Positions 1 to 64,000 of a stretch of DNA of 64,000 bases are shown here, in pieces. Source of the stretch: Bacillota bacterium (GTDB taxonomy: Bacteria > Bacillota > Sulfobacillia > Fermentithermobacillales > Fermentithermobacillaceae). The stretch is from positions 8,790 to 72,789 of the forward strand of contig JAXGQX010000002.1 of NCBI GenBank assembly GCA_040766225.1, in the 5' to 3' direction. The first letter of the stretch is position 1; each line of letters opens with the position of its first letter. The notes below the pieces were generated by a model. That model was given only the letters and a program-made list of their open reading frames with translations, was not told the origin of the DNA and made no database searches. The position numbers were made by a program, and so were the translations under genes.

Positions 1-93
1 TTCATGACCCGCTGATGTATGTTCTCGTACTCCGTTAGCAGGGCGGTAATGACCAGGTCAGCTTTCAGGTCAGTCGCGGTTTTGTCTTGGACC
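1..93 (-). CDS. N-terminal 31 codons of a gene running off the window start (MVQDKTATDLKADLVITALLTEYENIHQRVMN); hypothetical
   Basis: Reverse-strand ATG at 93 preceded by GGAGGAGGAAGG ribosome-binding site; open to the window edge. Confidence 0.35.
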
Positions 94-396
94 ATTAACC
101 TTCCTCCTCCAACGCTGCGGGCGCAAAAGGCTCGCATTCACTTCTTCAGCGCGCCCCTCTTTGGTTCCTCTTTGTGAGCGACTATGCTTAGAGCCCGTAC
201 GAGGCACTTTCCGTGTATGAGTTAGTACTAGTTAGTGAATTGGCTGCCCTTTCTGACAGGATGTCGGCTTCGGTGCGTCGAACCAGAATGCCATGGGAAT
301 CAGGAAGATGTCGGTCATCTCGCCACAATTAACCTGCTAGCCGAGAACCATATCCATGGCCCTTTTGGGCCGATAACGGAGAGGAGTGCTTCGTCA

Positions 397-1985
397 GTGA
401 GAGCAGTTCTGAGAGGCTCAACTGGAAGGTTTTTTGTCGCCTTTTTGGCCTTGCTCATGCTCATTACCCTGTTCCCCGCATGCGCGCCCCAGCCCGTAGC
501 GAAAGAACCCGACCCTCCCGACGACCCGGAATTCCCGGAAGAACCGAAAGGAGATCCGCCAGTGTATCTGCCAATCTCTTTGTCTTTACCTCAGTTGAGG
601 ATTTTGAAAACGGCGAGCATGAGAACACAGAGGTCATCCGTTGGGCAATGGCGCTGTCTCTCTCAAGGACGGAGCAGCCAAGTGGGAAGCTACACCTCGC
701 CTGTGTACGGTACCGATCCTTTCGAGTACATGATTCTCTCGTGGAACGCCGACACGCCGAAAGGAACCTACATAGAAATCGAAGGCCGCGTCTACGCGGG
801 CCCAGGCGACAACAGACAGTGGTCTAACTGGCTATCTTGGGGTTGTTGGAGCACCTCGGAGTTCACCGACGAGACGGGGAAGGTGAGGTTGGCCGGGTCC
901 GCTTCGGGGTCCAAGGCCGGCGATGCCATAGCCAGCGTCGATACCGACGAGTTGTATGTCAAAGGCAACTCAGGCGAAACCGCCGACAGGTTCCAGTATC
1001 GTGTAACTCTGCATGCCTTCGAAGGGACCGCACCGAAGGTCGCCCTCGTGGCAAGCACTATCAGGAACACACTGGCCGGGCAGGCGGTCGCTAGGGTATA
1101 CCCGGACGACGCGCCAGACCTCTCTACCTTGACAAGGACCTTGACGTGCTGATGTATTCCCAGATGCAGAGGTACATGAAGATCGCCAGTTCCATTTGCA
1201 GCCCGACGAGCGTGGCAATGGCGGTGAGTTATCACGGTGTGGATGTATCACCCGACGAGATGGCCTGGAGCGTCAACGACTACGGGGCCGATATGTTCGG
1301 CAACTGGCCGTTCAACACCGCCGCAGCCGCGAGCCACGGGTTCATGTCTACGTCGCTCTGTGGCGCGCCAAAGGACGGCGATCCATACGCGGTTAAGCAG
1401 GAAATCAACGACGGCAACCCCGTCGTGGTGAGCGTAAGGTACAGAAGGCCTACCTCCACGGCCAGCTATCCCGCTGTGGAGAGAACGTCCCCATTGACTA
1501 ACCGAGGCCACTTGGTCTTGGTCAGGGGCTTCACCTGGCAAGACGGCAGGGAGTACGTCATCGTTAACGACGCAGCCGCATCAAGGGGACGAGGATGTAA
1601 GGCGCCTTTACCCTGCTGATCAGTTTAATGACGCTTGGGTTAAGAAAGTGTATTACGTGATTCGCCCGGATGGGGCGAGATCTCCGAGCCGTGTGTGCAG
1701 CCCTACATCCCGGGAGTCCTAGTCAAGGTGGGGAGCCCGACAGCCGACGGCTACCAGAAGTTCGAGCTTCAGATTGACGGCACTCCCATCGATCTCAGCA
1801 CGGGGACTATGCGCAGCGCGGTCGTATCCTATAACGGTGAGAAAACCAAACCGCACAATCCGCGGGAGAAAGCTATGGCGGAATCCAACTATCTGTGGTT
1901 CAAGACCAACAACAAGCCGGGTGAGTACACATTCTGGTTTTTTGACATGAACAGGAATACGTACACGGCTGAACTAGAGTGGTAA
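397..1985 (+). pseudogene. Secreted C39-like (BtrH/YvpB-type, Peptidase_C39_2) cysteine peptidase; split into ORF pieces 235-1152, 1146-1619 and 1695-1985 by at least 2 frameshifts and one in-frame TGA at 1617
   Basis: N-terminal signal/lipoprotein-like segment FFVAFLALLMLITLFPAC. Middle piece has catalytic Cys context IASSICSPTSVAMAV and His context GHLVLVRGF, typical of C39-like peptidases. Adjacent frames carry protein-like sequence in the same orientation. Confidence 0.5.
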
Positions 1986-2263
1986 TCTGACGGTTGCAGG
2001 GCGAGACGGGGTATCGCCGCCGGAGTGAGGGCCGAAACCAAAACGGGCTAGGCTCCTTCGGGCGAATGCGATTTGGGCCGGTCAATTAGCCGGCCCTCAT
2101 CTTTGCGCCTTCGGCCCAGATCAGATCGGCGCAGCAGGCATCAACGCTTCCGTGGAGCTCAGGAACATGAGTCCAGATCCGGGAGTCTCATAAATGGAGA
2201 GGAAATCGAGAGTGATAGCCGCCCAACGGCCGCCAGAGATTCCCCGTAAGGAGGTTTGACTAG

Positions 2264-3241
2264 GTGACCAGCGATAACGGGTCGCTTGAAGCGTGCAGGT
2301 TCAAGGACATCGAACTCAGGCTCGCTGACGTGATAGCGAGAGCAGAGAACAAGAAGAGCCTGGAAAGGAAGCTACACCTCGCTCACAAGGAGCTGGAGTC
2401 GGAGAGGGCCAGGCTCGCGGGGTTGGCCGTGGAGATGGAACGCGAGCGAAAGGATGTCGCCCGTCTCGAGGGCATAAGCCTTGCAGGGCTTTTCCATGCG
2501 GTGCTCGGTGACCGGTCCGCTCGCATCGACAAGGACCGCGAGGAGTACCTGATTGCGAAGCTACACCATGACCAAGCCGAACAAGCGGTGACGCAGCTTG
2601 AGTCCGATGTCCGAAGCCTATCCGGCAGGGTGACCGCCTGCGGTAACCCTGACGCGGAGCTCAGTGGCCTTGTTAGGGAAAAAGAAGAGCTCCTTGTCGC
2701 GGAGGGAAGCCCAATCGCCTCAGCGCTGCTTGACATAGAGGAAGAGAAAGGCCGCGCTCAGGCCCTAAAACAGGAACTACACGAGGCCATCGCGGCCGGT
2801 GAGAACGTATGTGCCGGGCTCAAGGAAGTCCTCAACTCCCTGGGCAGCGCCCGCAATTGGGGGGTGTGGGATATGCTCGGAGGCGGCCTGATTGCCACGG
2901 CTGCGAAGCACTCTAGCTTGGATAGAGCCCGTGACCAAGTCCACCACGTCCAGGACCTCATGAACCGCTTCAGGAGAGAACTATCTGACGTGGCCGGCTC
3001 TTTGCCCAACTTGGAGATTGGAGGATTCGCCAGATTCGCCGACTACTTCTTTGACGGGCTTCTCGTCGATTGGATGGTGCAATCCAGGATCAACGAGAGC
3101 ACTGATAGGGTTCGTCAGCAACTTTCCAGCGTTGAGGCGGTGCTGAACTCTCTGCGAGCGAGATTGCGAGGGGCCGATTCGGTCCTTGCAGGGCTGGACG
3201 CCAAAAAACAGGCCATGCTATTGAAGCCAAGCGGGGAGTAG
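2264..3241 (+). CDS. Hypothetical coiled-coil protein, 325 aa
   Basis: Intact ORF with a Glu/Arg/Leu-rich heptad-like N-terminal half. No recognised family. Confidence 0.55.
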   Translation: MTSDNGSLEACRFKDIELRLADVIARAENKKSLERKLHLAHKELESERARLAGLAVEMERERKDVARLEGISLAGLFHAVLGDRSARIDKDREEYLIAKLHHDQAEQAVTQLESDVRSLSGRVTACGNPDAELSGLVREKEELLVAEGSPIASALLDIEEEKGRAQALKQELHEAIAAGENVCAGLKEVLNSLGSARNWGVWDMLGGGLIATAAKHSSLDRARDQVHHVQDLMNRFRRELSDVAGSLPNLEIGGFARFADYFFDGLLVDWMVQSRINESTDRVRQQLSSVEAVLNSLRARLRGADSVLAGLDAKKQAMLLKPSGE

Positions 3242-3252
3242 GTCCGACAACC

Positions 3253-4241
3253 TCAAAATAGCACTCTTACCGCCATCCCCAATCTGGACGCGCAAGACCA
3301 AACCGTGTCTCTCAGCCTGTCCAGGTATTCCGCCTGGCTTCTCGTGTACTCGCGCAACGCGCCGGCTGCCTCTGGAGGTGCGGTCTTCGAGAATCGGCTG
3401 ACCGACGCCGGATATGGGTTGAACCTGTCGACCATGACCCTCGACGCACCGGTGTCCTGGATGGCGCGCAGGATCCCAAGCATCGCCGGCTCCGAATCAG
3501 AGTGATGGGGGAGGACCGGGCTTACGAAAGCCCACGTCCTGATGCCTGCTTCCGAGAGCGCATTTAGCGCTGCAAGCCTCTGGTAGCGTTAGCTCCCGTT
3601 CGCAGAGTCTGCTGACTGGTCATCGGTTGATGTGATTGATAGTCCTACTTCGACAGACGGTATGTTCTGAAGCACATCGATGTCGCGTACAACCAAGTCC
3701 GACTTAGTCGGGACGGAATGGCTAAGATGGGGCAGGATACGGTCATCCAGAGTCAGGAAGAGCCCGGCATGCGAATCGGAAAGCTCGCTCGCCAAGACCT
3801 CCAGACATGCCCGAAGTGATCCGGTACTTTCGTTCCAGAGGTTGATGAGGGTCAGTGACGCTGGACATCACGATTTCAAAGGAAGCGTTGTCAGGTCGAG
3901 TCCTTCGCGGGGCACTCCGACGGGTGTTATTGTCGATGTTGTTGTCGGTGATGGTGTCGCTGGCCGGGTTGCCGGGACCCACGTCGGTCCGCGGTCTTGG
4001 TCAGTGCCTGTGGTTTCTTAGCCGCCCGTCGAAGGTCGGCCGCTAACGCGTCAGGGGCATTGACTTTCACATCCACCCATTGGCCCCAGGGCCTGTCGTG
4101 ACAGAGGAATTCTCGCCATGAAAGACGCATAGCAGTAGACGCAGTTGTGGGCACAACCGACGTATGGGTTTATGGCGTAGTCGGTAATCCCGGACTTGGT
4201 CAAAGCCGACTTGCACGATATCTCTGGACCGCCGGTTCCAT
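3253..4241 (-). pseudogene. SplB-like radical SAM protein (spore photoproduct lyase/DNA repair photolyase family, COG1533-like), at least 4 frameshifts
   Basis: Reverse-strand translation gives ...LTKSGITDYAINPYVGCAHNCVYCYASFMARIPLS, the family N-terminal CxxxCxxC signature, and a C-terminal piece LAALNALSEAGIRTWAFVSPVLP...MLGILRAIQDTGASRVMVDRFNPYP. ATG at 4241 with GGAAGGTG ribosome-binding site. Pieces lie in three frames. Confidence 0.55.
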
Positions 4242-5435
4242 GGGGTTCACACCTTCCGCTTCTTGATCTAACCCAAGTATACAGGGAACCGCGCGCAGTC
4301 GCTGAAGTCTACACCCGCGGCCAGGAGAGAGCGCGAGAACATCGTGGCTAAGCGCGGCGATAGGGCGGGTCTGATTGCTCTGTGTAGATAAGTGTAGGTG
4401 GGGGAAAGAACGTGAGTAGTAATGAGCCTCAACCCAAAGCACCGGCTCCCTCCGCATGCCCTGCTAGATAAAACTCCGACGACTGACTCGCTGGATGGTA
4501 GTACGCCTATTTTGGCAACTGTGTGCGATAGCATCAGCGCCGTCGCGATGTGGTTAGCCATGGGGTCATCACCCGGTCTCACCTGCCCGATGGTGGACGC
4601 AACTTCGGCAACAACTGGCGGTATGGTCTTCTCTTGATGCTGTTGCCCGCGTGCCAACGCTGTTTCCAACTTTATCGAAGGGCTGCGCCGCCCTCTCACA
4701 CTCTCTCTGGCAACTGTCATTGTCATGCTGACAGCCGGAGAATTGGACACTCTCGCTGCCATTTGGCGGGTATGACTTCTATGCGAAAATCGGACTCTAC
4801 TGGGTCTCGTTTCTTTCGGGCGTCGTTTTCGCGGTGGTGGTTCGCTTAGTGAGCGATAAGGAGCATGGAAGAGAAGCGTCGGCTCAGTGGCACGAAGCTT
4901 GCTGACTATAGTCTTCATCGTCCTCAGCGTGACGTTTGCGGGGGCGCAGCCGGGAGGGGTGATATCCTCGGTGAGGCGTGGCCTTCCCATTCCGCGAGCG
5001 CTGTGGACATGGAGCCTCTGGGGGTCAAAGTGCCTGTATGAGGCGACCGCTCCGGGCAGCTACGTTGCCGTGCAGCCAGCATCCTCAGCTAACGGCAAGG
5101 CTCACTACGATCCTCCTGCTAGCTTCCTTCAGCGACCGGTGGGCTATCATCGATCAATAGCGGGACCGCGCATGAGTTCAGCCTTCTGCCGGCGATCACA
5201 GGGGCTCTTCCCGAATCCGATCGCCCTCGGGGTGAGGCTGTGAAAGGCAGATTCCAGGACATGCGAATTCCAGTGATCTGAATGGTTCGGATAGCCAGAT
5301 GCCGAAACCTCCGTCACCGCCCTCGGACTAGCGGCGCTTACGTTCCCTGAACGCATAGATCTGCGTGGGGTCGAGTTTGTAGTTGACATCAGTCTCGGCG
5401 AAAGACGAGCAAACGTCGTCGCCAGAAGCGCGCAC

Positions 5436-5765
5436 GTGGGATATGAGGTGTTCGGGAGCAACAAAATGGTGATCGAGGGGCTGCTGACTCTGGATGACAT
5501 AATGCTTGAAGTCCCGGGGAAAGAACTCCGGCTCATCGGGGACAGGAAAGGGGTCAGTCTACTGCAATCTGACCTGACTGTCTGGCGGCTGAAGATCGCG
5601 GTATCCCCGGTTGGGCTGAACCGAAGGTTCATCGCGTGGGCAAGGCCAACCGGCACCGGAGGCGTCGTGTTCGCGGTCGAACGTATGGAATGGAAGGACA
5701 TTAGCCGCCGCGGTTCCGGTCCCGGATATCAGGTCTATACCGTGTACTATGTAGGCCCTGTCTAG
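5436..5765 (+). CDS. Hypothetical protein, 109 aa, GTG start
   Basis: Strong G/C preference at codon third positions in this frame, unlike neighbouring S/T/R-rich shadow ORFs. No family recognised. Confidence 0.3.
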   Translation: MGYEVFGSNKMVIEGLLTLDDIMLEVPGKELRLIGDRKGVSLLQSDLTVWRLKIAVSPVGLNRRFIAWARPTGTGGVVFAVERMEWKDISRRGSGPGYQVYTVYYVGPV

Positions 5766-6599
5766 ATTGGGCGGCCTGAGATAGCTGCCTTGCTAAGACA
5801 AGAGCAATGGGAGGAGATACCCTTGGAACCTAACGAGTTGCTGATAAGGTTCAAGCAGTTCCGAAGTGCGTCATGGTATTGCTGCTACGCTCCTGGTTTT
5901 GGGAGTCGTCGCCTCGGTCGCGGTTTTGTGAAACTGCGTGCCCTCGAAAACCGACCGGTCTACGTGAGCTGTTCGGGCTCTTCATATAGCGGTCCGCGGG
6001 CAGACGGGATCGCGAGTTCGGACTTGGACCCCGCTTTGGATCTCGCGGGAGCAAGGCCTCGCCAGCGTCAGTTTCACGTTCAGACTTGCCAGCAAGATCG
6101 GGCTCAGGAGTTGAAGCTGCCTATAAAGGCTCGAAGGACAGGACGTGTGGCAGACTGCCCCCATGAAGGCCGACCGGGATGAGCCTCTTACGCCTGCAGC
6201 ATCTGTCCCCATGGACGTCAACAGTTCGAGTACAGGCTTGAGCAGGTAATCGGAGGCGAGATAGTACGCGTCCCGTAGGGACTCAGGTGGCAGCTCTGGT
6301 CGGCAACGGGGACGGCTACGTCCATCTCTTCCCGCAAAGCGACAAATCCGGGGAGTTGCGGAGTGTCGCAGCACCCGTATTCCAAGATCAATGCTCTCCA
6401 AATCGACCGGGGTCCGGCTTAAAGGTCAACAGGGCGGGACAGAAGCAGCCGAAGAACATGTTCTCAAGGATGAAGACGGGAAAGGGCAGTCAAATGCTCA
6501 GGCTATACCTGAACCCTGACGGGATTAGGGATGTGGATGTGACGGTGGTTTACAAAGACAGGGTGTCCCCGCGAGCTGCCTGTGATGTGAAGCTTGGTG

Positions 6600-6937
6600 C
6601 CATGATTATCCTCACATGCACCGGATTCTCGCCATAGTTTTCTTGGCGTTTACCCACTCGACTATGTCGTGCACCAGGTTTGAGCCGCCTCCCATGAAGA
6701 GGCCTGTGATGGCCGGGCCCACCGGGCGCCACTGGGCTGATGCCGAACATCGCGAAGAAGTCCAATCCGGAGCCGTAGGCGAGGAATAGGGAAAGCGCCA
6801 TCGCCAAGAGCGTCGGGACCTGGATCCCTAAGACTCTCTTTTTGTCCAGTGCGGGCAGGACGTTCATGACAAGTTCGACTAGGCGCTCGACCGCGAGGCC
6901 AGACCCATGTAGCCAGTAATCCACTGGCGGTGTTCAT
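6600..6937 (-). pseudogene. Small membrane protein, frameshifted (at least 2x); weak resemblance to the DUF378 family
   Basis: GGAAAGGAGGG ribosome-binding site then ATG at 6937. Hydrophobic segments ALDKKRVLGIQVPTLLAMALSLFLAYGSGLDFFAMFGIS and FMGGGSNLVHDIVEWVNAKK lie in different frames. Confidence 0.3.
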
Positions 6938-7199
6938 AGAGATGCCCTCCTTTCCGGGTAACTGCGCCTCAGGCCTATTGCCGTGGAGGTAGGGAGCGGA
7001 CTTAGGAACCGCCTAAGAACCGCCAAACTTCAGCCTAGCGAAACCGCCGTGTAGCGATTCGATTAACGTAATGTATGACTTGGATGGGCAAAACGTGATG
7101 TCAAGAGGTGGTAATTGGCAGGATTTCAGCCTATCTCGGCATATGTAATCCGGTGTGCTTCTACAGAACGCTTTCGAGAACGAAAGGGAGTACTGAGAA

Positions 7200-8830
7200 G
7201 TGGAGCAGGAGATGAGGGATTCCGGCATCGAGCAGCTGGGCGGCGTGCCGTGGGGCTTCACGTTTGCCACTTTTATGAGTCAAAGACGGAACTGCTTGAA
7301 TCCTCGTGCCCTATACGGAGCGGGGCTCAAGAACAACGAGTGCTGCGTATGGGTTTGCTCTGAGCCGGTTTGCGAAGGGAAGCGCTCGCAGCTCTGCGTG
7401 AGGCAGTGCCCGGCCTCGATCCTTCATAGAAACCGGGCAACTGGAGGTACTTCAGTTCGATGGTTGGTATCTCCGGCCCGGCGGGGGCTTAGAGCCTGAA
7501 AACGTTCTCTGCAAATGGAAGCAGAAACTCGCCCAAGCCATCTCCGCAGGATACCAGGGTATTCGAGTAGCGGGGAACACGTCATGGGTGGAAAATGAGA
7601 TATGGAGGAGTTCACAGAGTACGAAGGGCGCATCTCCGGAGCGATAGGAAAAGACAACATCTTGGTCATGTGCTCTTACCCTTGCTCAATGAGAGAGGCT
7701 CCGCAGGTTGTAGATGTGGTCAAGAATCACCAAGCATGCTCTTGTTCGAAGCGAACTCGGCTGGGACCTCGTTGAATGCGGACGGTACTGGGAGCGCGAA
7801 TGGGGAGTCCCTTTCGACGAGATCGAAGAGGAATTCTGGTTAATGGGCGGCGAAGGGGAGATCCTGGCTGCTAACCGGGTCCTGCTGGATTGCTTCCGCG
7901 TTAAGGGCATGCGAGACCTTGGTAAGGACCTTGACGAAGCCTTTGCAGCCAAATTCGAAGTTGCGTCCCGACATTCTGACGACCGTCTCTCCCTGTTGGA
8001 AGTATTGGGGGCCGGCAATGGCCGCAGCAATTGGCTCGCCACCATACCCGAGGTGCGAGAAAGCATCGAATTGTCTATCCGCGCTCGCACTGTCCGTGCC
8101 ACCTCATACGTCTCCACTCGCTACCTTCTGCTGATCCACGACGTAAGCGGAGATCCGCCGCTTGGGCGGATGAAAGACCGGTTTGTGCAAGTCATGGGGC
8201 ACGAGTTGAAGAACCCTATTCAGGTGATGAAGGCCCTGGTGCCTCTCCTAAATATGATGGAGTCCCCCGAGATTTCAACCATCCGTCGCTACGCCAAGAT
8301 GCTGAACGCGCAGATCACGCAGCTTTCATCCCTCATCGAGGACCTGCTGACGGCTTTGCGCGTCGGAAGGCAGCCAACTACTTACTTTGAAGTCCGACCG
8401 ATCTCGTGAATCTGGTCAGCGAGCGGGGCCAATTCCCAGGTGTCGACGAAGGGTCACGAGGTTATCCAGCTGTTCACCACAAATGAAGAGCTCCCGTATT
8501 TGTGGACGGGAGGCGCGCCCGTGGGATTCTCGCCAACGTGTTCCGGGAACGCGGTGAAGTACTCTCCCGAGCACGGATTTGGATAGACATTAGGGTGCAA
8601 TCAGGTTCTGCGCTGGTCATCATCGAGGACGAAGGCGTCGGCATTCCGGATAGTGAACTGGAACTGGTTTTCAGGCGTTCTACCGCGGATCAAATACCGA
8701 TCAGACTGACGTCGACGGTGTGGGAATTGGGCTATTCATCAGCAAGAAAGTGGCTCGTCAACACGGAGGCGACCTTTGGGCGGAGCAGCGAGAAGGCGGC
8801 GGCACACGAACCATCTTGAGGCTTCCTCTC
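7200..8830 (+). pseudogene. MEDS-domain sensor histidine kinase, at least 4 frameshifts
   Basis: MEDS-like N-terminus (HVCHFYESKTELLESS...GLKNNECCVWV...NILVMCSYP). HisKA H-box VMGHELKNPIQVM in frame of 7714-8409. HATPase N/G1 box IEDEGVGIPDSELELVFRR in the 8502 frame. G2 box GIGLFISKKVARQHGGDLWAE in the 8720 frame. Confidence 0.6.
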
Positions 8831-9020
8831 TTGGAGGACCCAGCCGACCTGGCTCCGCGACTTTGGGGGGCTAGTCTATCGACGTGGGAAGTCTTGGCGT
8901 CTTATTGCCGGGAAAATGCCAAGGACAGGGTATCGAGAGGGAACACAGCGCCGCCATCGTCGTCTATACGGGTGGCGCGGCTCCTTGCGCCGTAAGTTCT
9001 GACACAAGGAGGTTTCTACC

Positions 9021-10290
9021 ATGCCGACGTCTCTTAGCCGGAATCTCGGTGATCGCGCTATCACGCGTATTGCTCTGCATTCTCGTCTGCGCCCTCAGTG
9101 TCCTCGCGCTCGCAGGCTGCGCGACGAAGCCCAACCCTGTCAATGCTACCCCAGCTAAGAACACGGTCTCTTTCGCAAAGAGGAGCGCTTCCTTTGGAAT
9201 TGACCTGTTCAAGTCCATCTACGACCCCGCCGACTCCATGAATATCGTTATGTCGCCGTTCAGCGTAACCGAAGCGCTGGCGATGGCCCTAAACGGCGCG
9301 TCAGGCGAGACATTGGAGGACATGAGCCGCGTCCTCAACTTCGGAGACTTGACGATCCCGGAGATGAACGCCGCCAGTGAGGAACTCTGCGCCATATTGA
9401 TGGGTTCTGACCCTACAAGGCAACTCCTCTTAGCCAACTCAGTCTGGCTTCGGGATGGCTACCCTTTTGATAAGGACTTCATCAATTCAGTGGAAGAGGC
9501 GTTCGAGGCGGAGGCACGCGTCCTGGATTTCACTTCTCCCAACTCTGTCCGAAAGGTCAACGATTGGGTGAAACAAAAGACCAAGGGCAAGATCGAATCC
9601 ATCCTGGACAGCATTGGCGTAAATGACCTGGCATACCTGGTAAACGCCATTTACCTGAAAGCCGATTGGTCAGACGAGTTTGACCCGAACAAGACAAGCG
9701 ACGCGCGCTTCTCCACGCCAACTTCGCAGGTGACGGTCAAGATGATGCGCAGAAAGGCTGAGTACGCGTATCTCTCTGGAGACGGGTTCCAGTCGGTTCG
9801 AATACCCTATGGCGGGGGCAGCACGGCCATGTACGTTTTCTTGCCTGACGAGGATGTGGGACTTGAAGGTTTCATTGAAGACATGGCCTCCCAGAACTGG
9901 GAGCGCTGGATGGAGAGCTACCAGAAAAAGACGGTCTCCTTGGGGATGCCGCGGTTCACCGGGAAATATGAGACGCTCATGAACGACGCTCTGAAATCTA
10001 TGGGAATGGATATCGCTTTCGACTGTGATCGGGCTGATTTCCGGGGAATGTCCTCAACGAAAGATCGGAACCCCGGCATATTCATCGGTAGGGTCATCCA
10101 CAAGGGTTTCATCTCCGTAGGGGAGAAAGGCACAGAGGCTGCCGCCGCGACCGGGGTGGTCATGGAAACTAAATCAATGCCCTTAGAACCTGAGTTGTCG
10201 GTGGTCTTGAACCGGCCGTTTTTCTACGTCATAAGAGACGATGTCACCGGAGCTGCGCTATTCATGGGGACGGTCGTGGATCCGAGTTAG
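9021..10290 (+). CDS. Serpin (serine protease inhibitor), predicted lipoprotein; 1-nt indel right after the start codon
   Basis: Serpin core motifs (NIVMSPFSVTEALAMALNGA, hinge GTEAAAATGVVME, C-terminal PFFYVIRD). AAGGAGG ribosome-binding site plus ATG at 9021 is in frame 0, while the signal peptide RRLLAGISVIALSRVLLCILVCALSVLALAGC (lipobox LAGC) is in frame 1 (ORF 8884-10290). Confidence 0.8.
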
Positions 10291-13020: not shown

Positions 13021-13149
13021 ACACCGCTTGCCCAAAATTCGGCACAAAGCATATGCGAAGTCATCTTGCGAACAGGCGCGACGTCTTGTACTATTGAGGC
13101 GTGGAGGTGACGGTTCCATGACAACGAGATTGCCCGGCAGGGCAGGCCT

Positions 13150-13316
13150 CCTAGAGCCCCAGCCACCGGCACTCCTAAGCCCCAGCCACCGGCACTCCTA
13201 GAGCCCCAGCCACCGGCACACCTAGAGCCTCAGCTATCGGCGTTCCTACGGCTCCTGTCAATCGCATTCCCACGGCCCCTGCCACGAGTATGCCCACCGC
13301 TTCAGTGGCCGCGTCG
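13150..13316. repeat. Tandem repeat, 24-bp unit x about 7 (CCTAGAGCCCCAGCCACCGGCACT, progressively degenerate), running into the 5' end of the antitoxin ORF
   Basis: Direct reading. Confidence 0.8.
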
Positions 13317-13616
13317 CCTGGGACTCCGACAAGCCTTCAACCTGCCTCTTCAGCGGGCCCGGCGGATACCGCGGCAACTGTCTACACCACAGTTAGCAGC
13401 CGGTTTCAAACCGTCATTCCGTCCGAGATCCGAGAGAAGTTTGATGTGCGAGAAGGTTCCCGGCTTATGTGGCTCGACAGGGGAGATTCCATCGAGGTGG
13501 TGCCTGTCCCGGTTAAGCCCTGGAAGGCGTTTCGTGGGGCTGCGCGGAGAAGCAAGATGTTGCTCAAAGGCGATGGTGAACAGGAAACTCTACTTGATGG
13601 AGACGATAACCCATGA
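13290..13616 (+). CDS. AbrB/MazE/SpoVT-fold antitoxin (VapB-like) with a Pro/Ala/Thr-rich N-terminal extension of about 30 aa
   Basis: TVSSRFQTVIPSEIREKFDVREGSRLMWLDRGDSIEVVPV matches the SpoVT_AbrB swapped-hairpin domain. 4-bp overlap with the downstream PIN gene. Confidence 0.7.
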   Translation: MPTASVAASPGTPTSLQPASSAGPADTAATVYTTVSSRFQTVIPSEIREKFDVREGSRLMWLDRGDSIEVVPVPVKPWKAFRGAARRSKMLLKGDGEQETLLDGDDNP

Positions 13617-14052
13617 GCGAGGCGTACCTTCTCGACACCACCTCCATTCTCGCGTTGTACCGCGATGAGGCGGGAGCCGATACCGTCGAGGAGCTTTTCG
13701 AAAAGCGAGAACGCGATGGGACAGAGTTGCTCGTTGCCTCAGTCACCCTCTTTGGGATCATGTGGATGGCCATGTCGGAGCAAGGTGAGGACAAAGCCTT
13801 TCGACTTCTACTAGACATCCGAGGTCTCAACATGCTGGAAGTTTGGCCTGACGAATCGATTCTTTGACGGCTGCCCGGCTGAAGCAGACGGGCCTCAGCG
13901 ACTCAGGGGCGTTGATAGCATCTTCAGCTTTGGCCAAGGGAGCCGTGCTTGTGCACAAGCGTCCAGAGTACAGAAGACTCGCCGAAGCCGACCGTGGGCT
14001 ACGCGTCAAAGCGTTGGACATCTCGTCGAGAGGCTCTTCTACTGGCTCTTAG
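13613..14052 (+). CDS. PIN-domain toxin (VapC-like), one frameshift near 13860
   Basis: N-terminal YLLDTTSILALYRDEAGADTVEELF plus LLVASVTLFGIMW. The C-terminal part SGALIASSALAKGAVLVHKRPEYRRL is in the next frame (ORF 13864-14052). Confidence 0.65.
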
Positions 14053-14058
14053 CCCTAT

Positions 14059-14150
14059 TCAGCCGCAGGTCGCCCGCCCGCCGCAGGTCGCCCGCCAGCC
14101 GCAGGTCGCCCGCCCGCCGCAGGGCACTCGCCCGCCGCAGGCGGTAAGAG
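14059..14150. repeat. Tandem repeat, 18-bp unit x 5 (CCGCAGGTCGCCCGCCCG)
   Basis: Direct reading. Confidence 0.8.
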
Positions 14151-14328
14151 CTAAGACGACGCCTGCGACCGCGGACAAAGCCTGCGTGTCCCTAGCAAGT
14201 TTTAGGCGAGGACTTCGCCTGCCTTGCGCTTTTTGACGCAGAGATCGCCTGATCCCAGGTTCTATGCGCCTTTTTCCTTGAATTTCCGCCAAAACGCCGA
14301 AGGCATACTACTGCCGGAGGTGCGGTCA

Positions 14329-15212
14329 ATGAACAGCTTTTCCGTAGCCTCAGGAAGAGCCCTCAAGTCCATAAGGCACCTCGTCAGTCAGGAAATCGGT
14401 GCCTGGGAGGCCCGAGGCGTTAGGATCAGCGTCAAAGAAAGTCAGGCAGGAGAGCTTCTGGTCTTGCGTTGTGAGGTCCCAAAAACCCGAGAGGTTGAGC
14501 CGCACGGAAATACTTCAGACGATAAAAGCTTCCGTAGCCAACGGATTGTCCCATATCATCGTCGACGAGTACGAGAAACTCCTGGTGGTCCGCCTGATCG
14601 ACGATAATTACGCGTACCTGTCCTCCATGACCGGGAGATCTAAAACGCAAGGCCATGTCAAAACTGGCCGGGCGGGACGGAGCTACGAGCATCGGGCACT
14701 CGGGACAGAGGAAGAGCCGGGTTTGGGCTAAACTGGCTGAATACCTGGAGCGAGAAGACGAAATCGTGCTGGAAGGCTTCATAACCTTTCGACTGAAGGA
14801 ATACCTGGAGGACCTGTTCGACACAGTTGAGGAGACCGTCGAGGATTACCTGACCGAACGTGAGTACAGGGAATTCCTAAAGCTTCTGAGACATTTCATG
14901 TCGCGACAGAAAGAGTCAACCTATCAGGTAAACATCGTGAGAGACGGGGTCCGGTACCAGGTGCTTGACGAGAAACTGAAACCTGTGTCCGGCGAGGTGG
15001 GAAGATTCTTGGATAGACCGCCTAGGGGGATCGACCTGGGTGTGGACGACCTAATCGTGAGCGCGGTGGTGACACTGGCTCCGGAACTGGTGGTTTGGCA
15101 CGGCAAGGTTGACGGTTCGCCGTGTTACGATCTCATACATGACCTCTTTGAAGGACGATTGCACGTCTGCCCCGGTTGTGCTCTGGACTCAGGCGGATCG
15201 CCGGTGGTATAA
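14329..15212 (+). CDS. ytxC: YtxC-like sporulation protein, 2 frameshifts (pieces in ORFs 14224-, 14399- and 14655-)
   Basis: GGAGGTG ribosome-binding site plus ATG at 14329. Lies immediately upstream of thrS as in Bacillus and Clostridia. C-terminal piece EYLEDLFDTVEETVEDYLTEREYREFLKLLRHF is typical of YtxC. Confidence 0.55.
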
Positions 15213-15224
15213 TGCCCAAAACAT

Positions 15225-15497
15225 ATAACGGCTGTGAAGAGGAAAGTACCTGAAGGTCTCGCAGAAGAGAGGGAAGGCCAAGGCTGAGAGCCTTCCTGCA
15301 GGCGACCGGAAGTGAACACCACCTCGGAGCCTCCGGCAGAAGCTCGCCCCGGACAGGGCAATCGAGATAATGCCGGCGCCAAGAGCGCGATACAGCAAGA
15401 CGAGGGCCGGCTAGCCTGATTCCTGATTATTGAGGGTAGCCTGGCCGTTAAGGGTGGAACCGCGGAAACCCCCGCCCCTTTTGGGACGGGGTTTTTT
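15225..15497 (+). promoter_or_regulatory. T-box riboswitch leader of thrS with terminator
   Basis: T-box sequence AAGGGTGGAACCGCGG at 15449-15465, followed by a GC hairpin and U-tract CCCCGCCCCTTTTGGGACGGGGTTTTTT at 15468-15497. Confidence 0.65.
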
Positions 15498-15586
15498 GTA
15501 TGTCCAACGGCTGTGAGTCGGCTGTGAATCGGTGGTGAATCGGTGGCGAATGTGGTGAATGCGGGGAATCAAAGGAGGCTATTGAT

Positions 15587-17540
15587 ATGTCTTTGGATGA
15601 AGTGCGAGTATCTTGCGGCGGAGCCGTCTGTGAGCGTCCCCAAAGACGGGACGTTCCTCGACGCCAAGAAGGCTTTGTCGTGGAAGAACGACGTGCTAAT
15701 GGTGTTGTCTGGAGGGGAACCCAAGGAGCTTAGGAGCAAGGTCCAGGGGAGTGTGACGTCGTCCCGTTGACCTTCGAAGACGAGCGAGCCGCTGGGCGCT
15801 CCGCACACCGCCGCTCACGTGCTCGCTCAAGCCGTAAAGCGGCTCTATCCGGGAGTACGATTGGGCATAGGCCCGGCGATTGACGAGGGCTTCTACTACG
15901 ACTTTGATCTAAAGAGCCCGTTCGTGCCGGAGGACCTGGAGAAAATAGAGGCCGAGATGAAGAAGATAGTCTCGGAGAACATCCCTGTCGTTCGCCAGGA
16001 AGTGGACAGGGAGACGGCAAGGAAGATGTTCTCCGACATGGGTGAGGACTACAAGGTCGAGTTGATAGACGACCTGCCTGAGGACTCGGTCATCTCCCTT
16101 TACAGGCAAGGCGAGTTCGTAGACCTGTGCGCCGGCCCTCACGTCCCGTCCACCGGCTACCTTAAAGCCGTGAAACTGCTGAACTTCGCGGGCGCGTACT
16201 GGCGCGGAGACGAGAAACGGCCTATGCTGCAGCGGATCTACGGTACGGCCTTCATGAGCCAGGACGACCTGAAGCAGTACCTCGACAAGCTGGAGGAAGT
16301 CAAGAAGAGGGACCACCGCAGGCTGGCCAAGGAACTGGACCTGTTCAGCATCCAAGAAGAAGGCGGCCCCGGCTTGGTCTATTGGCATGCCAAGGGCGCT
16401 CTGATTCGGGAGATAATCGAGGACTTCTGGCGCAAGGAGCACCGCAAGAGAGGCTACGATATCGTCTACTCGCCGCACATCGCCAAACTTGACCTCTGGA
16501 AGACGTCCGGGCACTGGAACTGGTACAGAGAGAGCATGTACGCTCCAATGGCCATTGAAGAAGTCGAGTACATGCTGAAGCCGATGAACTGCCCCTTCCA
16601 TATCCTGATGTTCAAGAACCAGACCAGGAGCTACAGGGACCTGCCAATGCGCATGGGCGAGCTTGGGACGGTCTACAGATACGAGCGTTCGGGCGTGCTC
16701 CACGGAGCCTTGCGCGTAAGGGGCTTTACGCAGGATGACGCTCACGTCTTCTGCACCCGGGAGCAGCTGGAAGACGAGCTGATAGGGGTCTTGGAACTGG
16801 CTCAGTTCATGCTGACGACGTTCGGCTACGCCGAGTACGAGTGTATGCTGTCGGTGAGAGACCCTGAGAACAAGGCCAAGTACGTCGGCGACGATGAGAG
16901 CTGGGCGTTGGCCCAGAACGCTTTGGAGCAGGCTCTCTTAAGAAAGAACCTTCCGTATACGGTCGAGGAAGGCGAAGCCAAATTCTACGGACCCGCCATC
17001 GACATCAAGGTTAAGGACGCTTTGGGGCGGCGCTGGCAGGGGCCCACCATCCAGGTGGACTTCAACAACCCCGAGAGGTTCGACGTCACCTATGTCGGAG
17101 AAGATGGGTTAAGGCACCGGCCCGTCATGATCCATAGGACCGTCTTAGGCAGCATGGAACGCTTTGTGGCAGGGCTGGTGGAACACTACGCCGGAGCTTT
17201 CCCGTTGTGGCTGTCTCCCACCCAAGTCACGGTCATTCCTATCGCCGACAAGATGGCGGGCTACGCAGAGAAGGTAGCTGCCGCGCTTCGAGAAGAAGGG
17301 TTCCGCGTGAACTGCGACCTCGGACACGAGAAGATGGGTTTCAAGATTCGGCAGGCCCAGATGCAGAAAGTCCCGTACATGCTCGTGGTCGGAGCCAGAG
17401 AAGAGGAGAGCGGGACGGTCTCTGTTCGTCACCGGGCGGGTGGCGACATGGGGGCCATGCCCCTGGATGCCTTCATCAGGGGGGCCAAGGAGGAACTGGC
17501 GACCAAGTCCCTTGAGATGCTGGTGAAGTCGCAAACGTAG
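15587..17540 (+). CDS. thrS: Threonyl-tRNA synthetase; N-terminal TGS region (15587-15820) carries at least 2 frameshifts, remainder intact (ORF 15819-17540)
   Basis: Class II aaRS motifs. HTAAHVLAQAVKRLYPGVRLGIGPAIDEGFYYDFD matches the ThrRS editing-domain start. Upstream frames give GTFLDAKKAL and VVPLTFEDE, matching the ThrRS N-terminus. Confidence 0.9.
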
Positions 17541-22335: not shown

Positions 22336-22341
22336 GTTCCC

Positions 22342-23376: not shown

Positions 23377-23441
23377 AGAATAGACCCGTAAGGAGGGAAA
23401 CGCCTTTCGCGGTCCTTCGGATTTGGCGGTAGGCGAAACAT

Positions 23442-25895: not shown

Positions 25896-25913
25896 AGAAG
25901 GACCGGTGGGGCT

Positions 25914-27632: not shown

Positions 27633-27697
27633 GTCGTCATAAAGCGCTTTTCCTTTTCATAATCTACCAACGTGATTATGGACTAGGGTGAGGTGCT

Positions 27698-29858: not shown

Positions 29859-30104
29859 CACCCCTTCCCTCTGGCAACCGGAACGATGCTAACCAATGTA
29901 TCGAATTAGACCCTTGGCGGTGGCCCTGTGGGTCTTTTGGTACACTGCGTCCGGCCAATGTACCGAACACGCGCTTGCTGCTCGCTTACGCTCCATCCTA
30001 CATAGGCATACTAAAACGTAACGCCTTTCTTTGGCGGGTCGACGTAGGTAAGCCTAGGTCGGCGGTGGGTAGGACAAAGTAGCAGCCATCGGAGGTCTCA
30101 GATC

Positions 30105-45819: not shown

Positions 45820-46962
45820 TTGCCTCTTCTACGGTTTGAAGTCACCCACGAAGACAAAGCTGCGCGGCTGGGCCGCATGTGGACTCCGCACGGGGTCATT
45901 GAGACTCCCGTCTTCATGCCTGTCGGGACTCAAGCTACGTTGAAGTCCGTGCTTCCAAAAGATGTCTGGGATACCGGCACAAGGATCATGCTGTCCAACG
46001 CCTATCATCTGTATCTGCGTCCGGGCACTAACGTGGTCAAAGCGGGAGGCGGGCTCCACAAGTTCATGAACTGGCCGGGAGCGACCCTTACGGACAGCGG
46101 AGGCTTCCAGGTCATGAGTTTGGGACATATGGTGTCCCTGAACGACGACGGAGCGGTCTTCCGGTCGCACATAGATGGAAGCCTCGTGAAGTTCGGCCCC
46201 ATGAGTCAATACAGGCCCAGGTGGACATAGGGGCGGACATCATCATGTGTTTCGACGAGTGCCTCCTTACCCCGTGAGCCGAGAGGGTGCGATAGAATCA
46301 GCACGCCGGACGCTTTTGTGGGCAAAGAAGGCCAGGGCAATGGATGTACCCGAATCCCAGGCGCTCTTTGGGATCGTTCAAGGCTCCACCTTCTTGACCT
46401 CAGGAAGCAGTGCGCGCTGGACCTAGCTGAGCTGGACTTTCCCGGGTACGCTTTGGGAGGACTCGCTGTGGGCGAACCCAAGAGGGAGTTCTACGACGTC
46501 CTGAACCATACCGCCTCGTACCTGCCCAAGGATAAGCCTCGCTACCTAATGGGAGTGGGGCACCCGTACGATCTGGTGGAGGGCGTGTTGGCCGGGGTGG
46601 ACATGTTCGATTGTGTCCTTCCCAGCCGAAACGCCAGGCACGGCAGGGCTTTTACCTTCCAGGGCCCGCTGAACCTAAGGAACGCCAAGCACGTGTCGGA
46701 CCGGTCGCCCATTGAAGAGGGCTGCGATTGCCTGGCATGCCGCGGCTTTTCCCGGGCGTATATCCGGCACCTTTTCATATCCGGGGAAAGCTTGGCGTGG
46801 ACTTTGGTGACGCTTCACAACCTTCGGTTCTTTCAAAGGCTCATGGCAAACCTATCTTCGCACGTTAGAGCGGGTAGCGCCGGGAGTTACAAGGAAGAAA
46901 TCAGGAGAATCTATCCAGTGGAAGTGTCAGATGATGCGGATGGTGAAAGGTTATGGCAGTAA
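45820..46962 (+). CDS. tgt: Queuine tRNA-ribosyltransferase, one frameshift about 46230-46320
   Basis: PVFMPVGTQATLKSV...TDSGGFQVMSL; zinc site CDCLACRGFSRAYIRHL in the second piece. Confidence 0.85.
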
Positions 46963-61662: not shown

Positions 61663-62640
61663 TGGATTGGATGGACATTGTGCTTCCCCTTTGTGCGGGC
61701 TTCGTCTTTTCCGCGTTAGCGGGATTAGCCGTCATCCCGTATCTCAGACGCTTGAAGGTAGGCCAGAGCATCAGGGCGGAAGGGCCTAAGTCCCATCAGA
61801 AGAAGGCCGGCACTCCCACTATGGGGGGCTTCATCTTCATCATTGGAACCCTTTTGTCGGTAGCGCTCTACCGGGGCTTGACGAGAACGCCTCCACCTGT
61901 GGAGGAGCTCTTGATATTGGGCCTATTCGTAACGTACGGCGCCATCGGTTTCATCGACGACTACCGCAAGGTGCGGTTCGGACGGAACCTGGGGCTCAAG
62001 GCAAGAGAAAAGCTGGTCCTTCAAGTGCTGTTCGCGGCGTTGTTCACCTGGTTCTTCGCCGATAGGAAGGCGGTGTTGGTTCCCTTCCTGGGCCAGGAAC
62101 TGCGCTTAGGGTTCCTGTACCCGTTGTTCGCCATATTTGTCATTGTGGGTATAGGTAACGGGGTGAACCTGCTTGATGGTTTGGATGGCCTGGCCGGCGG
62201 CGTGGTCGCCATCGGGCTTGCGGCCTACGTGGTTGTGACCCGTCAAGGCCATGGCTGGGGCTGGACGTTTCGCCGCTAGCCCTGGGGGCGTTGGGGGCGG
62301 TGGGCGGGTTCTTGCTCACAACAAGCTCCGGCCCGGGTCATTATGGGGGACTTAGGTTCCCTCTCCTTGGCGTCTGCTTTCGGGTCTGGCGGTAACTACC
62401 CGTACTGAACTGGTCCTCCTGTTCTTCGCGGCCATGCCCGTCATCGAGAATTTGTCGGTTATCTTGCAGGTGGCTTCGTTTCAGCTTACGGGCAAAAGAA
62501 TATTCAAGATGAGCCCGCTTCACCACCACTTTGAGTTAAGCGGATGGAAAGAGACGGCGGTGGTCTACGCCTTTTGGCTCGCCGCGGCCGTCTTCGCGTT
62601 TCTCGGACTTCTTTTTAATGGCATACGTTTAGTAAGGGGA
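61662..62640 (+). CDS. mraY: Phospho-N-acetylmuramoyl-pentapeptide transferase, frameshifted (about 62280-62440); natural stop lost into ftsW
   Basis: N-terminal ORF 61662-62279 with DDxxD-like FIDDYRKV; C-terminal [20 protein letters not shown] inside ORF 62434-63327. Confidence 0.85.
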
Positions 62641-62650
62641 TGTGACGTTG

Positions 62651-63762
62651 CGCAGGCGGGGGAGACGGCCATTCGGCGCAAACAGCCGGACTTCATATTG
62701 CTTTTCGCCGTCCTTACGCTCTTGGCCATCGGCATCGTCATGGTCTTTTCAGCCAGCATGGTTCGCTCGGTCAGGTTCTACGGCCACCCCTACTACTTTC
62801 TCGTAAGGCAGTTGATGTGGGCCGGCTTGGGACTCTCCGCTATGTTTTTTCTTGCCAACTATGACTGCTGGCGTTACCGCAAGTTCATAACCGGCATTTA
62901 CGCCCTCTCTTTGTTGCTCTTGGTCCTGGTCCTCATCCCGGGAATCGGCCAAGTCAGAAACGACGCCAGACGGTGGATCGGCGTCGGCTCAATGGTGATC
63001 CAGCCGTCGGAGATAGCTAAGTTCACGACCGTCTTGTTCCTCGCTGACAGTCTCGCGAAAAGGCGCGAGAAAGTGGGAGACCTAATACGCGGTCTTGGCC
63101 CTTACCTGGTCCTTTTAGGGGTGACCTTTGTCTTGGTCTTGGCGGAACCGGACTTGGGAACCGCCGTCGCCATAGCGGCAGCCCGGTCGTGGTCATTTTC
63201 GCCGGCGGCGCGAAAGTGTGGCACCTTGTCGGCCTGGCGCTATGGCGTTGCCCGTTTTGTATTGGGCTATCATGGGCGAGGAGTACAGGCGGAACAGATT
63301 CTTGGCCTTCCTTCATCCTTGGGATGACCCGGCGGGCGACGGGTGGCAGATTATCCAAGCGTTGTACGCGTTGGGGACCGGGGACCTTTCGGGACCGGCA
63401 TCGGCTACTCACGACAGAAGTGGTTCTACTTGCCCTATCCGCATACTGACTTCATTTTCGCCGTCCTGGGAGAAGAGATGGGTTTTGTGGGCACCAGTCT
63501 TGTGGTCCTGTTGTTCTTCATCGTCGCCTGGCGAGGCTTTAGAGCTGCCATGGCCGCGCCGGACAGGTTCTCGTGCCTCTTAGCCGCCGGGCTCACTTCC
63601 CTCATCGTGATGCAGGCTCTGGTCAATATAGGGGTCGTTACCGGCTCACTCCCCATTACGGGCATACCGCTTCCTTTCATCAGTTCCGGCGGGTCGTCGC
63701 TTCTCACCAACTTGGCGGCCGCGGGCGTGATCCTCAACATATCAAGGTACGCGAATCGCTAG
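62651..63762 (+). CDS. ftsW: FtsW/SpoVE (SEDS family) cell-division/sporulation protein, multiple frameshifts
   Basis: [28 protein letters not shown]; C-terminal [23 protein letters not shown] in ORF 63343-63762; pieces in three frames. Confidence 0.85.
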
Positions 63763-63780
63763 AAGAGGGGGGCCCAACGA

Positions 63781-64000
63781 TGCGCTTGATCGTGACAGGA
63801 GGAGGGACAGGCGGTCACATATACCCGGCTTTGGCCGTCGCCAAGGAGACCCTGTCGCTCATGCCCGGCGCGAAGGTGCTGTATGTGGGGACCGCGCAGG
63901 GCATGGAGTCGGGGATCGTGCCCCGGGAAGGAATACCTTTTCAGCCGGTACGGTCTTCGGGGGTTATGGGAAAGAGGGCTTTGGTGGCCCTTCGAGGGCT
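63781..64000 (+). CDS. murG: UDP-GlcNAc:lipid I GlcNAc transferase, 5' part; runs off the window end
   Basis: MRLIVTGGGTGGHIYPALAVAKE. Confidence 0.85.

Follow-up and report, generated by a model that had tools for sequence, protein, structure and literature searches.

Frameshifted genes in a 64-kb window of a Bacillota contig very probably reflect clustered errors in the deposited consensus

Introduction

Homopolymer indels, gene fragmentation and their dependence on coverage are documented for metagenome-assembled genomes (MAGs) built from long reads (PMC9262707, PMC8103633), and the same effects of error and coverage are documented for assemblies generally (PMC11017572). The window analysed here, a stretch of 64,000 nt, had been described in an initial annotation as carrying pervasive and uneven 1-nt frameshifts, many of them in homopolymers, which were ascribed to indel error in a long-read or pyrosequencing assembly rather than to real pseudogenes. 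Comparison with independently assembled contigs supports indel error over real pseudogenes, based on private indels, intact orthologues, repair of reading frames and homopolymer enrichment of deletions. We put the probability that the frameshifts are errors of the deposited consensus, and not mutations in the organism, at about 0.93. The contig is a mosaic: of the sequence covered by references, about two thirds has essentially no errors and about one third lies in patches.

Results

Indels in the window are concentrated in kilobase-scale patches. The references were 16 independently assembled Logan contigs from eight public SRA runs, which were compared with the window by blastn and cover 49.2 kb of it. 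Identity is 99.3-99.9% over most of the 49.2 kb and about 91% over 18.8-21.7 kb; for whole contigs it ranges from 97.7 to 99.96%, with one contig, L034, at 95.0%. The references represent other samples and strains, 0.1-0.7% divergent, and are therefore no strict proof of what the source strain carries. The comparison yields 192 indel events, 123 of them outside 18755-21715, confirming that the frameshifts are pervasive, uneven and often in homopolymers. All but two fall inside nine patches of 0.2-4 kb that total 15.4 kb. The remaining 33.8 kb holds two events only, in T7/T6 runs between genes at 22315 and 53012, and none in genes. With an index of dispersion of 7.3, and with 58 empty bins among 96 of 500 nt where 13 would be expected, the clustering is far beyond chance. 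Per 100 nt of patch, the consensus shows some 0.2-2.6 indel events and as many as about 2.5 additional substitutions; the highest densities, at 18.8-21.4 kb, are inflated by true divergence of the only reference there. Intergenic and leader sequence is affected too (22315, 29861, 29934, 36255 and 17686-17735). The patches and clean blocks are as follows.

13148..15802, plus strand: error patch 1, with 15 indel events of which 13 are 1 nt long, by blastn against L034 and L035
17686..21400, plus strand: error patch 2, infC leader and C-terminus, rpmI, rplT, ktrB and ktrA
29192..31108, plus strand: error patch 3, sparse, seven single-base events, by blastn against L001
34435..36296, no strand assigned: error patch 4, sparse, four single-base deletions, by blastn against L004
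40765..42505, plus strand: error patch 5, dense, 23 events, by blastn against L004, L005 and L006 (three samples, all agreeing)
46196..46395, plus strand: error patch 6, three single-base deletions in tgt, by blastn against L005, L036 and L037
49258..51422, plus strand: error patch 7, the densest with a good reference, by blastn against L036, L037 and L007 (three samples agreeing)
62248..63379, plus strand: error patch 8, 13 events of which 12 are deletions, mraY and ftsW broken, by blastn against L038
22316..29191, plus strand: clean block, zero indels in 6.9 kb
31109-33371, 36297-40764, 42506-46195, 46396-49257, 51423-59743 and 60825-62247: further clean blocks

Patch 1 breaks the PIN and YtxC genes and the N-terminus of thrS and touches the thrS T-box leader; in L034 and L035 both YtxC (294 aa) and ThrS (651 aa) are intact. 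One of the events in this patch may be real, namely a 23-nt difference in copy number within a 24-nt tandem array. At Rfam gathering thresholds there was no match in the window or in the error-free contigs. The T-box upstream of thrS is sub-threshold at 69.9 bits in the window and 67.9 bits in L034, and because these scores are alike RNA detection is no useful test for errors.

In patch 2 the codon model gives no winning frame over 18312-20941, and L034 carries intact IF3 (193 aa), L35 (67 aa), L20 (118 aa), TrkH (441 aa) and TrkA (219 aa). From 18755 on, L034 is the only reference and represents a truly diverged allele: its mismatches there are third-position-biased, and both sequences have an intact SpoU, with about 89% amino-acid identity between them. 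Since true divergence is mixed with errors over 18.8-21.9 kb, there is no clean event count for this stretch, and its 69 events, an inflated number, were left out of the statistics.

Six of the seven events in patch 3 are deletions in runs of 2-5, and the genes for a 406-aa protein, a DUF421 protein and a Thioredoxin_9 protein that they break are intact in L001. Patch 4 has two of its deletions in a minus-strand gene for a 721-aa protein and the other two at tyrS, one upstream of the gene and one 27 nt inside it; TyrS is intact in L004 (416 aa). The events of patch 5, with 2-4 nt deletions among them, are distributed over ruvC (2), ruvA (6) and ruvB (15), and its references carry intact RuvC (176 aa), RuvA (196 aa) and RuvB (349 aa). 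The three deletions in tgt are located in runs of C5, C3 and G2 (intact Tgt of 381 aa in L036). Patch 7 combines 55 mismatches with 47 indel events, of which 31 are insertions of up to 9 nt, and breaks korA, korB, korC and the N-terminus of a methylmalonyl-CoA mutase. MraY, broken in patch 8, is intact at 325 aa in P0125/L038. The clean block at 22316..29191 contains pheS, pheT, polX and a gene encoding a YkuD-domain protein and reaches 554 nt into the gene for the 406-aa protein, and the block at 51423-59743 is clean apart from one polymorphic T6/T7 run at 53012.

Genes broken in the window are full-length in other assemblies. Among the genes compared, 24 are broken and 23 intact. The 24 genes with a near-identical intact reference, all full-length in the Logan contigs, include PIN, YtxC, thrS, infC, rpmI, rplT, ktrB, ktrA, the 406-aa, DUF421 and Thioredoxin_9 genes, the 721-aa minus-strand gene, tyrS, ruvC, ruvA, ruvB, tgt, korA, korB, korC, the methylmalonyl-CoA mutase gene, mraY and ftsW. 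With the additional split genes upstream of 12,940 (see below), the earlier figure of at least 30 split genes is therefore about right, and its warning that gene-loss calls from this window are unsafe was justified. Essential genes are not spared: thrS, tyrS, rplT, rpmI, infC, mraY and ftsW, normally single-copy and essential, are all broken. Individual genes are hit repeatedly, with 6 events in rplT and 15 in ruvB (blastn against three samples), the latter described earlier as shifted at least five times. The base missing after the rplT ATG had been read as G; relatives have ATGCCTCGC, so the missing base is C. Correction of indels alone restores open frames in 20 of 23 genes, with 96-100% amino-acid identity to the intact proteins, whereas korA, korB and ktrB retain 1-2 in-frame stops after indel removal (one in korA, one in korB). 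The view that the broken genes show no stop-codon accumulation or decay consequently fails in the densest patches, which carry these residual stops and extra non-synonymous substitutions. The genes listed as intact are so: pheS, pheT, polX, rsmH and the class B PBP gene have zero indels over their full length, and mutS2, murE and murF have none where references reach (to 33371, to 59743 and from 60826, respectively), each being one open frame in the window.

The indels are confined to a single record. At 89 of the 90 indel sites covered by at least two samples, every sample agrees against the window, the single exception being an intergenic T6/T7 run; at these multiply covered sites the lesions are not common to close relatives. 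The truncated products are found solely in the NCBI record of the window itself, whose 182,955-nt contig belongs to a Fermentithermobacillaceae-like Bacillota.

The error spectrum is error-like rather than selection-like. Statistics were computed on 123 events, with those at 18755-21715 excluded for the true divergence of the reference there. The description of the frameshifts as 1-nt changes applies to 95 of the 123 (60 deletions, 35 insertions) but not to the other 28 (23%), which span 2-23 nt. As a check of indel positions against homopolymer runs, single-base deletions proved strongly enriched in runs: 50 of 60 lie in runs of at least 2 (expected fraction 0.49, p = 2.5e-8), and runs of at least 5 hold 14 of 60 (expected fraction 0.012). 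Single-base insertions as a class show no homopolymer enrichment (p = 0.15). Outside any run lie 10 of the 60 deletions and 16 of the 35 insertions (26 of 95 together), and the multi-base events are mostly non-homopolymeric, for example +CCGCGCTTG, +AACGC, +TATG and -GCCC. The errors follow homopolymer context and not the function of the gene. Substitutions lying no more than 60 nt from an indel are spread over codon positions 31/21/29 (22 synonymous and 46 non-synonymous codons), while those farther away show 14/9/59 (60 synonymous, 21 non-synonymous); the two classes differ (Fisher p = 5e-7). Since substitutions are codon-blind near indels and favor third positions elsewhere, the patches represent random errors and the rest normal strain polymorphism.

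The first 12,940 nt probably contain a further error-rich stretch. This region and the ktrAB stretch are without a near-identical reference because exact-product look-ups failed, returning no match for the thrS fragment, the serpin, a 276-aa membrane protein, a 325-aa protein, P0002 or SpoU. The sole match in a scan of a genome-contig collection was L012, from a 68%-identical Candidatus Fermentithermobacillaceae MAG, and that in a metagenome-contig collection was L013, a 3.3-kb relative with 83% amino-acid identity; a protein search with the kinase fragment recovered only the window's own product. Upstream of 12,940 we instead used tblastn with a relative of about 80% identity, codon-model Viterbi decoding and Pfam, the last on six-frame translations with stops replaced by X (plus strand 1-9300, minus strand 3000-7400). 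Together this indirect evidence points to the following feature.

682..9030, no strand assigned: probable error-rich stretch, from codon model, tblastn and Pfam

Viterbi decoding finds no consistent frame over 3227-5297, 5700-6421, 6901-7598 and 8374-9156. A MEDS/HisKA/HATPase_c histidine kinase at 7115-8854 is spread over three frames: tblastn with the L012 ORFs gives frames 2/1/3/2 for the kinase (and -3/-2/-1 over 6615-6964), and Pfam finds MEDS divided between frames 3 and 1 and HATPase_c between frames 3 and 2, with HisKA in frame 1. Two further split genes lie at 5811-6964, and a split radical-SAM gene, with a weak Radical_SAM Pfam match, occupies about 3256-4200 on the minus strand; for 4200-7100 the Pfam scan returned nothing beyond the kinase and this weak match. 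A frame change at about 1112, adjoining a Peptidase_C39_2 domain, is probably another broken case. The serpin start is shifted as had been noted, its ATG at 9021 being one base out of frame; once a base after this ATG is removed, the translation has a lipoprotein signal peptide resembling the one in the L012 orthologue.

Discussion

Consensus error at about 0.93 probability leaves the sequencing platform and the cause of the patchiness, both of which we infer. Most likely, the window belongs to a metagenome-assembled contig from error-prone long reads of nanopore or PacBio CLR type. Locally, coverage may have dropped to a single read or a few, or stretches may have escaped correction during short-read polishing or gap-bridging, with strain heterogeneity as a possible contributor; gene callers would then break up each affected gene wherever the net frame changes. 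The nine patches, the non-homopolymer indels of 2-9 nt and the codon-blind substitutions argue for a long-read consensus that is locally poorly supported or unpolished. A plain long-read assembly would not usually place error-free stretches of 7 kb next to stretches with about 5% error, and a hybrid, polishing or depth effect is therefore assumed.

Co-existing strains may have been collapsed into one consensus, with haplotype switching by the consensus caller or polisher producing both indels and mixed substitutions. This is a sub-mechanism of artefact, compatible with consensus error, and we regard it as a possible but doubtful source of the patches. The patch at 18.4-21.9 kb coincides with the truly diverged allele in sample SRR32329120, and in several samples short-read contigs stop inside or close to patches (21860-21887, 46255-46257, 49934), the kind of place where strain variation breaks de Bruijn graphs. 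The ruvABC, kor and mraY/ftsW patches, however, show no second haplotype, two to three independent samples being mutually identical there, and their substitutions are codon-blind and not third-position.

Of the two platforms originally proposed, long reads are the likelier source and pyrosequencing fits poorly. Homopolymer miscalls of flow chemistry (454 pyrosequencing or Ion Torrent) would explain the enrichment of single-base deletions in runs and the sparse patches at 29192-31108, 34435-36296 and 46196-46395, which consist of single-base run-length changes only. They are an improbable source for the window as a whole, given the 28 of 123 events of 2-23 nt, the 26 of 95 single-base events outside runs, the insertions lacking enrichment and the dense, codon-blind substitution errors alongside the indels. 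Homopolymer error that is not uniform likewise fits pyrosequencing poorly, and a metagenomic contig of 183 kb would be atypical of 454 or Ion Torrent.

Real pseudogenisation, by massive genome decay or in a mismatch-repair-deficient hypermutator whose indels are true mutations, is very improbable. Loss of mismatch repair or Pol IV activity also typically gives -1 and +1 indels in homopolymers. Yet at 89 of the 90 sites covered more than once no other sample shares the window's indel, normally essential single-copy genes are struck again and again (ruvB 15 times, rplT 6 times), and selection on the broken genes is not relaxed away from indels, where 60 synonymous codons compare with 21 non-synonymous ones. 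Kilobase-scale patches with codon-blind substitutions beside 33.8 kb left untouched argue against it as well. Slightly less probable still are patches that are real, either as kilobase-scale tracts of error-prone repair (Pol IV-like -1 frameshifts with random substitutions) caught before purging or as non-viable or relic DNA. Rescue of functional frameshifts by programmed ribosomal frameshifting or transcriptional slippage, which has nothing window-specific in its favor beyond some events in A or T runs where slippage can occur, is effectively refuted by intact orthologues unshifted at every site in near-identical contigs, and up to 15 events per gene, many multi-base or outside slippery sequence, also speak against it.

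Gene breakage in the window is an ordinary data-quality warning and involves no real gene loss. Inferences on gene loss, pseudogene load, completeness or metabolism drawn from the record would be wrong for about half of the compared genes (24 versus 23), and truncated products already stand as separate protein-database entries, for example a 559-aa ThrS and a 231-aa kinase fragment. As the errors are local, a genome-wide average quality score would hide them. The value of the finding is practical only: the patch map and the intact reference contigs enable frameshift-aware correction.

Pseudogene-rich genomes such as those of Mycobacterium leprae, Sodalis glossinidius and recent endosymbionts resemble the window in their many frameshift-interrupted genes. 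In real decay of the M. leprae or Sodalis type, however, essential translation and cell-wall genes are spared, lesions are common to relatives and substitutions occur throughout, none of which is seen here. Homopolymer errors of 454 and Ion Torrent are alike in that run-length miscalls lead to +1/-1 frameshifts, whereas the window has multi-base non-homopolymer indels, clustered substitutions and insertions that are not run-enriched. Closer are the spurious pseudogenes that vary with assembler, platform and coverage (Cooley and Wright 2024, PMC11017572), where near-identical genomes differ greatly in apparent pseudogenes and internal stops accompany poor accuracy, as in korA, korB and ktrB; that study treated whole isolate genomes, while the errors here are localized at base level in one 64-kb window of a probable MAG. 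Long-read assemblies and MAGs (nanopore R9-type or PacBio CLR) share with the window deletion-biased single-base homopolymer indels and gene pieces in adjacent frames whose sequence is intact apart from the shifts (Sereika et al. 2022, PMC9262707; Cusco et al. 2021, PMC8103633; Kastor, PMC12007338), and their errors are worst at low coverage and are removed by comparison with accurate assemblies. In contrast to such assemblies, the window has its errors in sharp patches over about one third of the sequence, with the rest essentially perfect, and its total error rises to about 5% in the dense patches, which include multi-base indels. The sharpness of the patches together with the multi-base indels suggests support by single reads, polishing that failed or gaps filled with long reads, and not a uniform residual error.

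The window carries pervasive frameshifts relative to independent contigs

The 64-kb window has a G+C content of ~58% and holds almost all of its genes on the + strand. Its 5' part encodes, in order, a kinase, a serpin and a radical-SAM segment, followed by ytxC, thrS, infC-rpmI-rplT, ktrBA, pheST, polX, mutS2, tyrS, ruvCAB and queH, then by spoIID, queA, tgt, yajC, korDABC and methylmalonyl-CoA mutase, with an mraZ-rsmH-ftsL-PBP-murE-murF-mraY-ftsW cluster at the 3' end. The nearest named relatives are Candidatus Fermentithermobacillaceae, with one MAG at 68% amino-acid identity and the ThrS of Ca. Fermentithermobacillus carboniphilus 71% identical. Truncated products of the window itself, a 559-aa ThrS (P0002) and a 231-aa kinase fragment (P0140), are recorded solely in one 182,955-nt NCBI contig.

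Through exact-product look-ups using intact window proteins or full-length homologues at 99% identity as queries, we obtained 16 Logan contigs, assembled from 8 SRA runs, as references. These cover window positions 12940-33371, 33903-59743 and 60825-63743 (49.2 kb in total) and are 97.7-99.96% identical to the window, with one contig (L034) lower at 95.0%. Every gene is full-length in the Logan contigs, including ThrS (651 aa), IF3 (193), L35 (67), L20 (118), TyrS (416), TrkH (441), TrkA (219), RuvC (176), RuvA (196), RuvB (349), Tgt (381), KorA (382), KorB (275), KorC (178) and MraY (325).

Comparison of the window with these contigs yields 192 indel events, 123 of them outside 18755-21715, where the sole reference is itself a diverged allele; clean counts consequently rest on the 123 events elsewhere. 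Among the compared genes 24 are broken and 23, including SpoU, are intact, confirming the pervasive frameshifts described in the initial annotation. Every gene listed there as broken is broken, from ruvB with 15 events to tyrS with one deletion 27 nt past its start, and all genes listed as intact are free of indels over their reference-covered parts. A base is indeed lost after the ATG of rplT, but it is C in relatives (ATGCCTCGC) and not the G proposed.

Indels are confined to patches and deletions favor homopolymers

The events are strongly clustered, with an index of dispersion of 7.3 per 500 nt and 58 of 96 bins of that size lacking events, compared with 13 expected. Nine error-rich patches totaling 15.4 kb hold all events except two, at densities of 2 to 26 per kb; they span 13148-15802, 17686-21400, 29192-31108, 34435-36296, 40765-42505, 46196-46395, 49258-51422 and 62248-63379. 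The other 33.8 kb contains only intergenic T7/T6 run differences at 22315 and 53012. Both runs (22310-22315 and 53006-53012) are T6 in the window and T7 in other samples. Since independent samples differ at 53012 (T6 in L009, T7 in L007), this difference may be a real length polymorphism and not an error.

The 123 countable events comprise 60 1-nt deletions, 35 1-nt insertions and 28 events of 2-23 nt, such as +CCGCGCTTG, +AACGC, +TATG and -GCCC. Single-base deletions are enriched in runs of at least 2 (50/60; expected fraction 0.49, p = 2.5e-8), at least 3 (31/60; expected 0.17) and at least 5 (14/60; expected 0.012), while insertions show no enrichment in runs (19/35, p = 0.15). The initial interpretation needs one refinement, in that the errors are patchy and neither purely single-base nor purely homopolymeric.

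Four tests point to error and not mutation

Of the 90 sites that contigs from at least two samples cover, 89 show all samples concurring with one another and against the window. Substitutions lying no more than 60 nt from an indel are distributed 31/21/29 over codon positions (22 synonymous and 46 non-synonymous codons), compared with 14/9/59 for those farther away (60 synonymous and 21 non-synonymous codons; Fisher p = 5e-7). This contrast indicates codon-blind noise in the patches and ordinary strain polymorphism under purifying selection elsewhere in the window. Removal of the indels alone restores open frames in 20 of 23 genes at 96-100% amino-acid identity, with korA, korB and ktrB retaining 1-2 stops that stem from substitutions in the densest patches. 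Finally, indels recur in genes that are normally single-copy and well established as essential. Cross-sample agreement, codon-blind substitutions, frame restoration and damage to essential genes all point to error over mutation and support the initial view that these are not real pseudogenes. The frameshifts are an artefact of the deposited sequence, without biological novelty.

Similar damage probably extends upstream of 12,940

For window 1-12,940, none of the collections searched contained a near-identical counterpart. In tblastn searches with ORFs of L012, a contig of a Candidatus Fermentithermobacillaceae MAG and ~80% relative, a 604-aa kinase is spread over frames 2, 1, 3 and 2 and two more genes are split. 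The Pfam domains MEDS, HisKA and HATPase_c are spread over three frames, a minus-strand radical-SAM gene is split, and codon-usage Viterbi analysis finds no consistent frame across much of 3.2-9.2 kb. This indirect evidence suggests that indel damage of the same kind extends upstream of 12,940. Together with the 24 broken genes, it makes the earlier count of at least 30 split genes about right.

The serpin ATG at 9021 is preceded by a good ribosome-binding site and its frame is off by one base. Dropping one base after the ATG yields MRRLLAGISVIALSRVLLCILVCALSVLALAGC, a lipoprotein signal resembling that of the L012 orthologue, which agrees by inference with the frameshift proposed at the serpin start. 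The serpin (Pfam Serpin, 9021-10290) lies downstream of the MEDS-domain histidine kinase, carries a lipoprotein-type signal peptide with lipobox LAGC and is 83% identical in amino acids to its L012 counterpart.

Besides the kinase and serpin, window 1-12940 contains two radical-SAM genes and encodes a C39-like peptidase, a coiled-coil-like protein of 325 aa and a membrane protein. Its best matches are ~80% nucleotide relatives, in contrast to the downstream 49 kb, for which 8 samples have counterparts with an identity of about 99% or more (~91% over 18.8-21.7 kb). The region may belong to this strain only, or its errors may be too many for exact-product look-ups to succeed.

Tandem repeats and a T-box leader

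Three tandem arrays lie side by side in one intergenic region (12293-13248), and two further repeats are found downstream.

Tandem repeats in the window
12293-12488: 44-nt unit x4.5
12618-13019: 32/94-nt unit x11.5, unit with hairpin-like inverted repeat GTCGTCAGCC...TGACGAC
13148-13248: 24-nt unit x4.2
14062-14141: 18-nt unit x4.4, immediately 3' of the PIN gene
33849-33965: 15-nt unit x7.8 (AGGATTCTGTCCGCC), 3' end of a 721-aa minus-strand gene

The short-read contigs L034 and L035 begin within the 94-nt array and have one 24-nt copy fewer than the window, and L004 starts within the 15-nt repeat. A T-box leader precedes thrS (window 15225-15482; L034 2266-2523). Its scores of 69.9 bits in the window and 67.9 bits in error-free L034 fall far short of the Rfam gathering score of 93, so default thresholds do not report it. 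For tyrS, the upstream sequence in L004 gave no T-box at E-values up to 1.

Possible origin of the patches

We infer the platform and the cause of patchiness from the error pattern. Flow-chemistry homopolymer error, as in pyrosequencing, one of two sources suggested initially, is a misfit both with sharp kb-scale patches (to ~5% total error) beside error-free multi-kb stretches and with the deletion bias, multi-base indels and accompanying substitutions. The features do fit a long-read consensus that was backed locally by only a handful of reads or left unpolished, and equally long-read bridges joining accurate short-read contigs. In several samples, short-read contigs terminate in or close to patches (21860-21887, 46255-46257 and 49934).

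The ktrB-ktrA-SpoU methyltransferase segment (window 18750-21900, L034 5790-8942) is truly diverged in SRR32329120, with a nucleotide difference of ~8%, mismatches biased to the third position and SpoU intact in both. The diverged allele, its >99% identical flanks and the two SRR32329120 contigs ending at 21860-21887 suggest a segment recombined or hypervariable between strains. Because the 18.4-21.9 kb patch coincides with this allele from one sample, strain heterogeneity may have reduced the effective depth in this patch or made polishing fail.

These frameshifts are of use solely as a warning and as a map for correction. For nanopore MAGs, the literature describes indels in homopolymers, gene calls broken into fragments and a dependence on coverage (PMC9262707, PMC8103633), and spurious pseudogenes are a marker of poor assemblies (PMC11017572).
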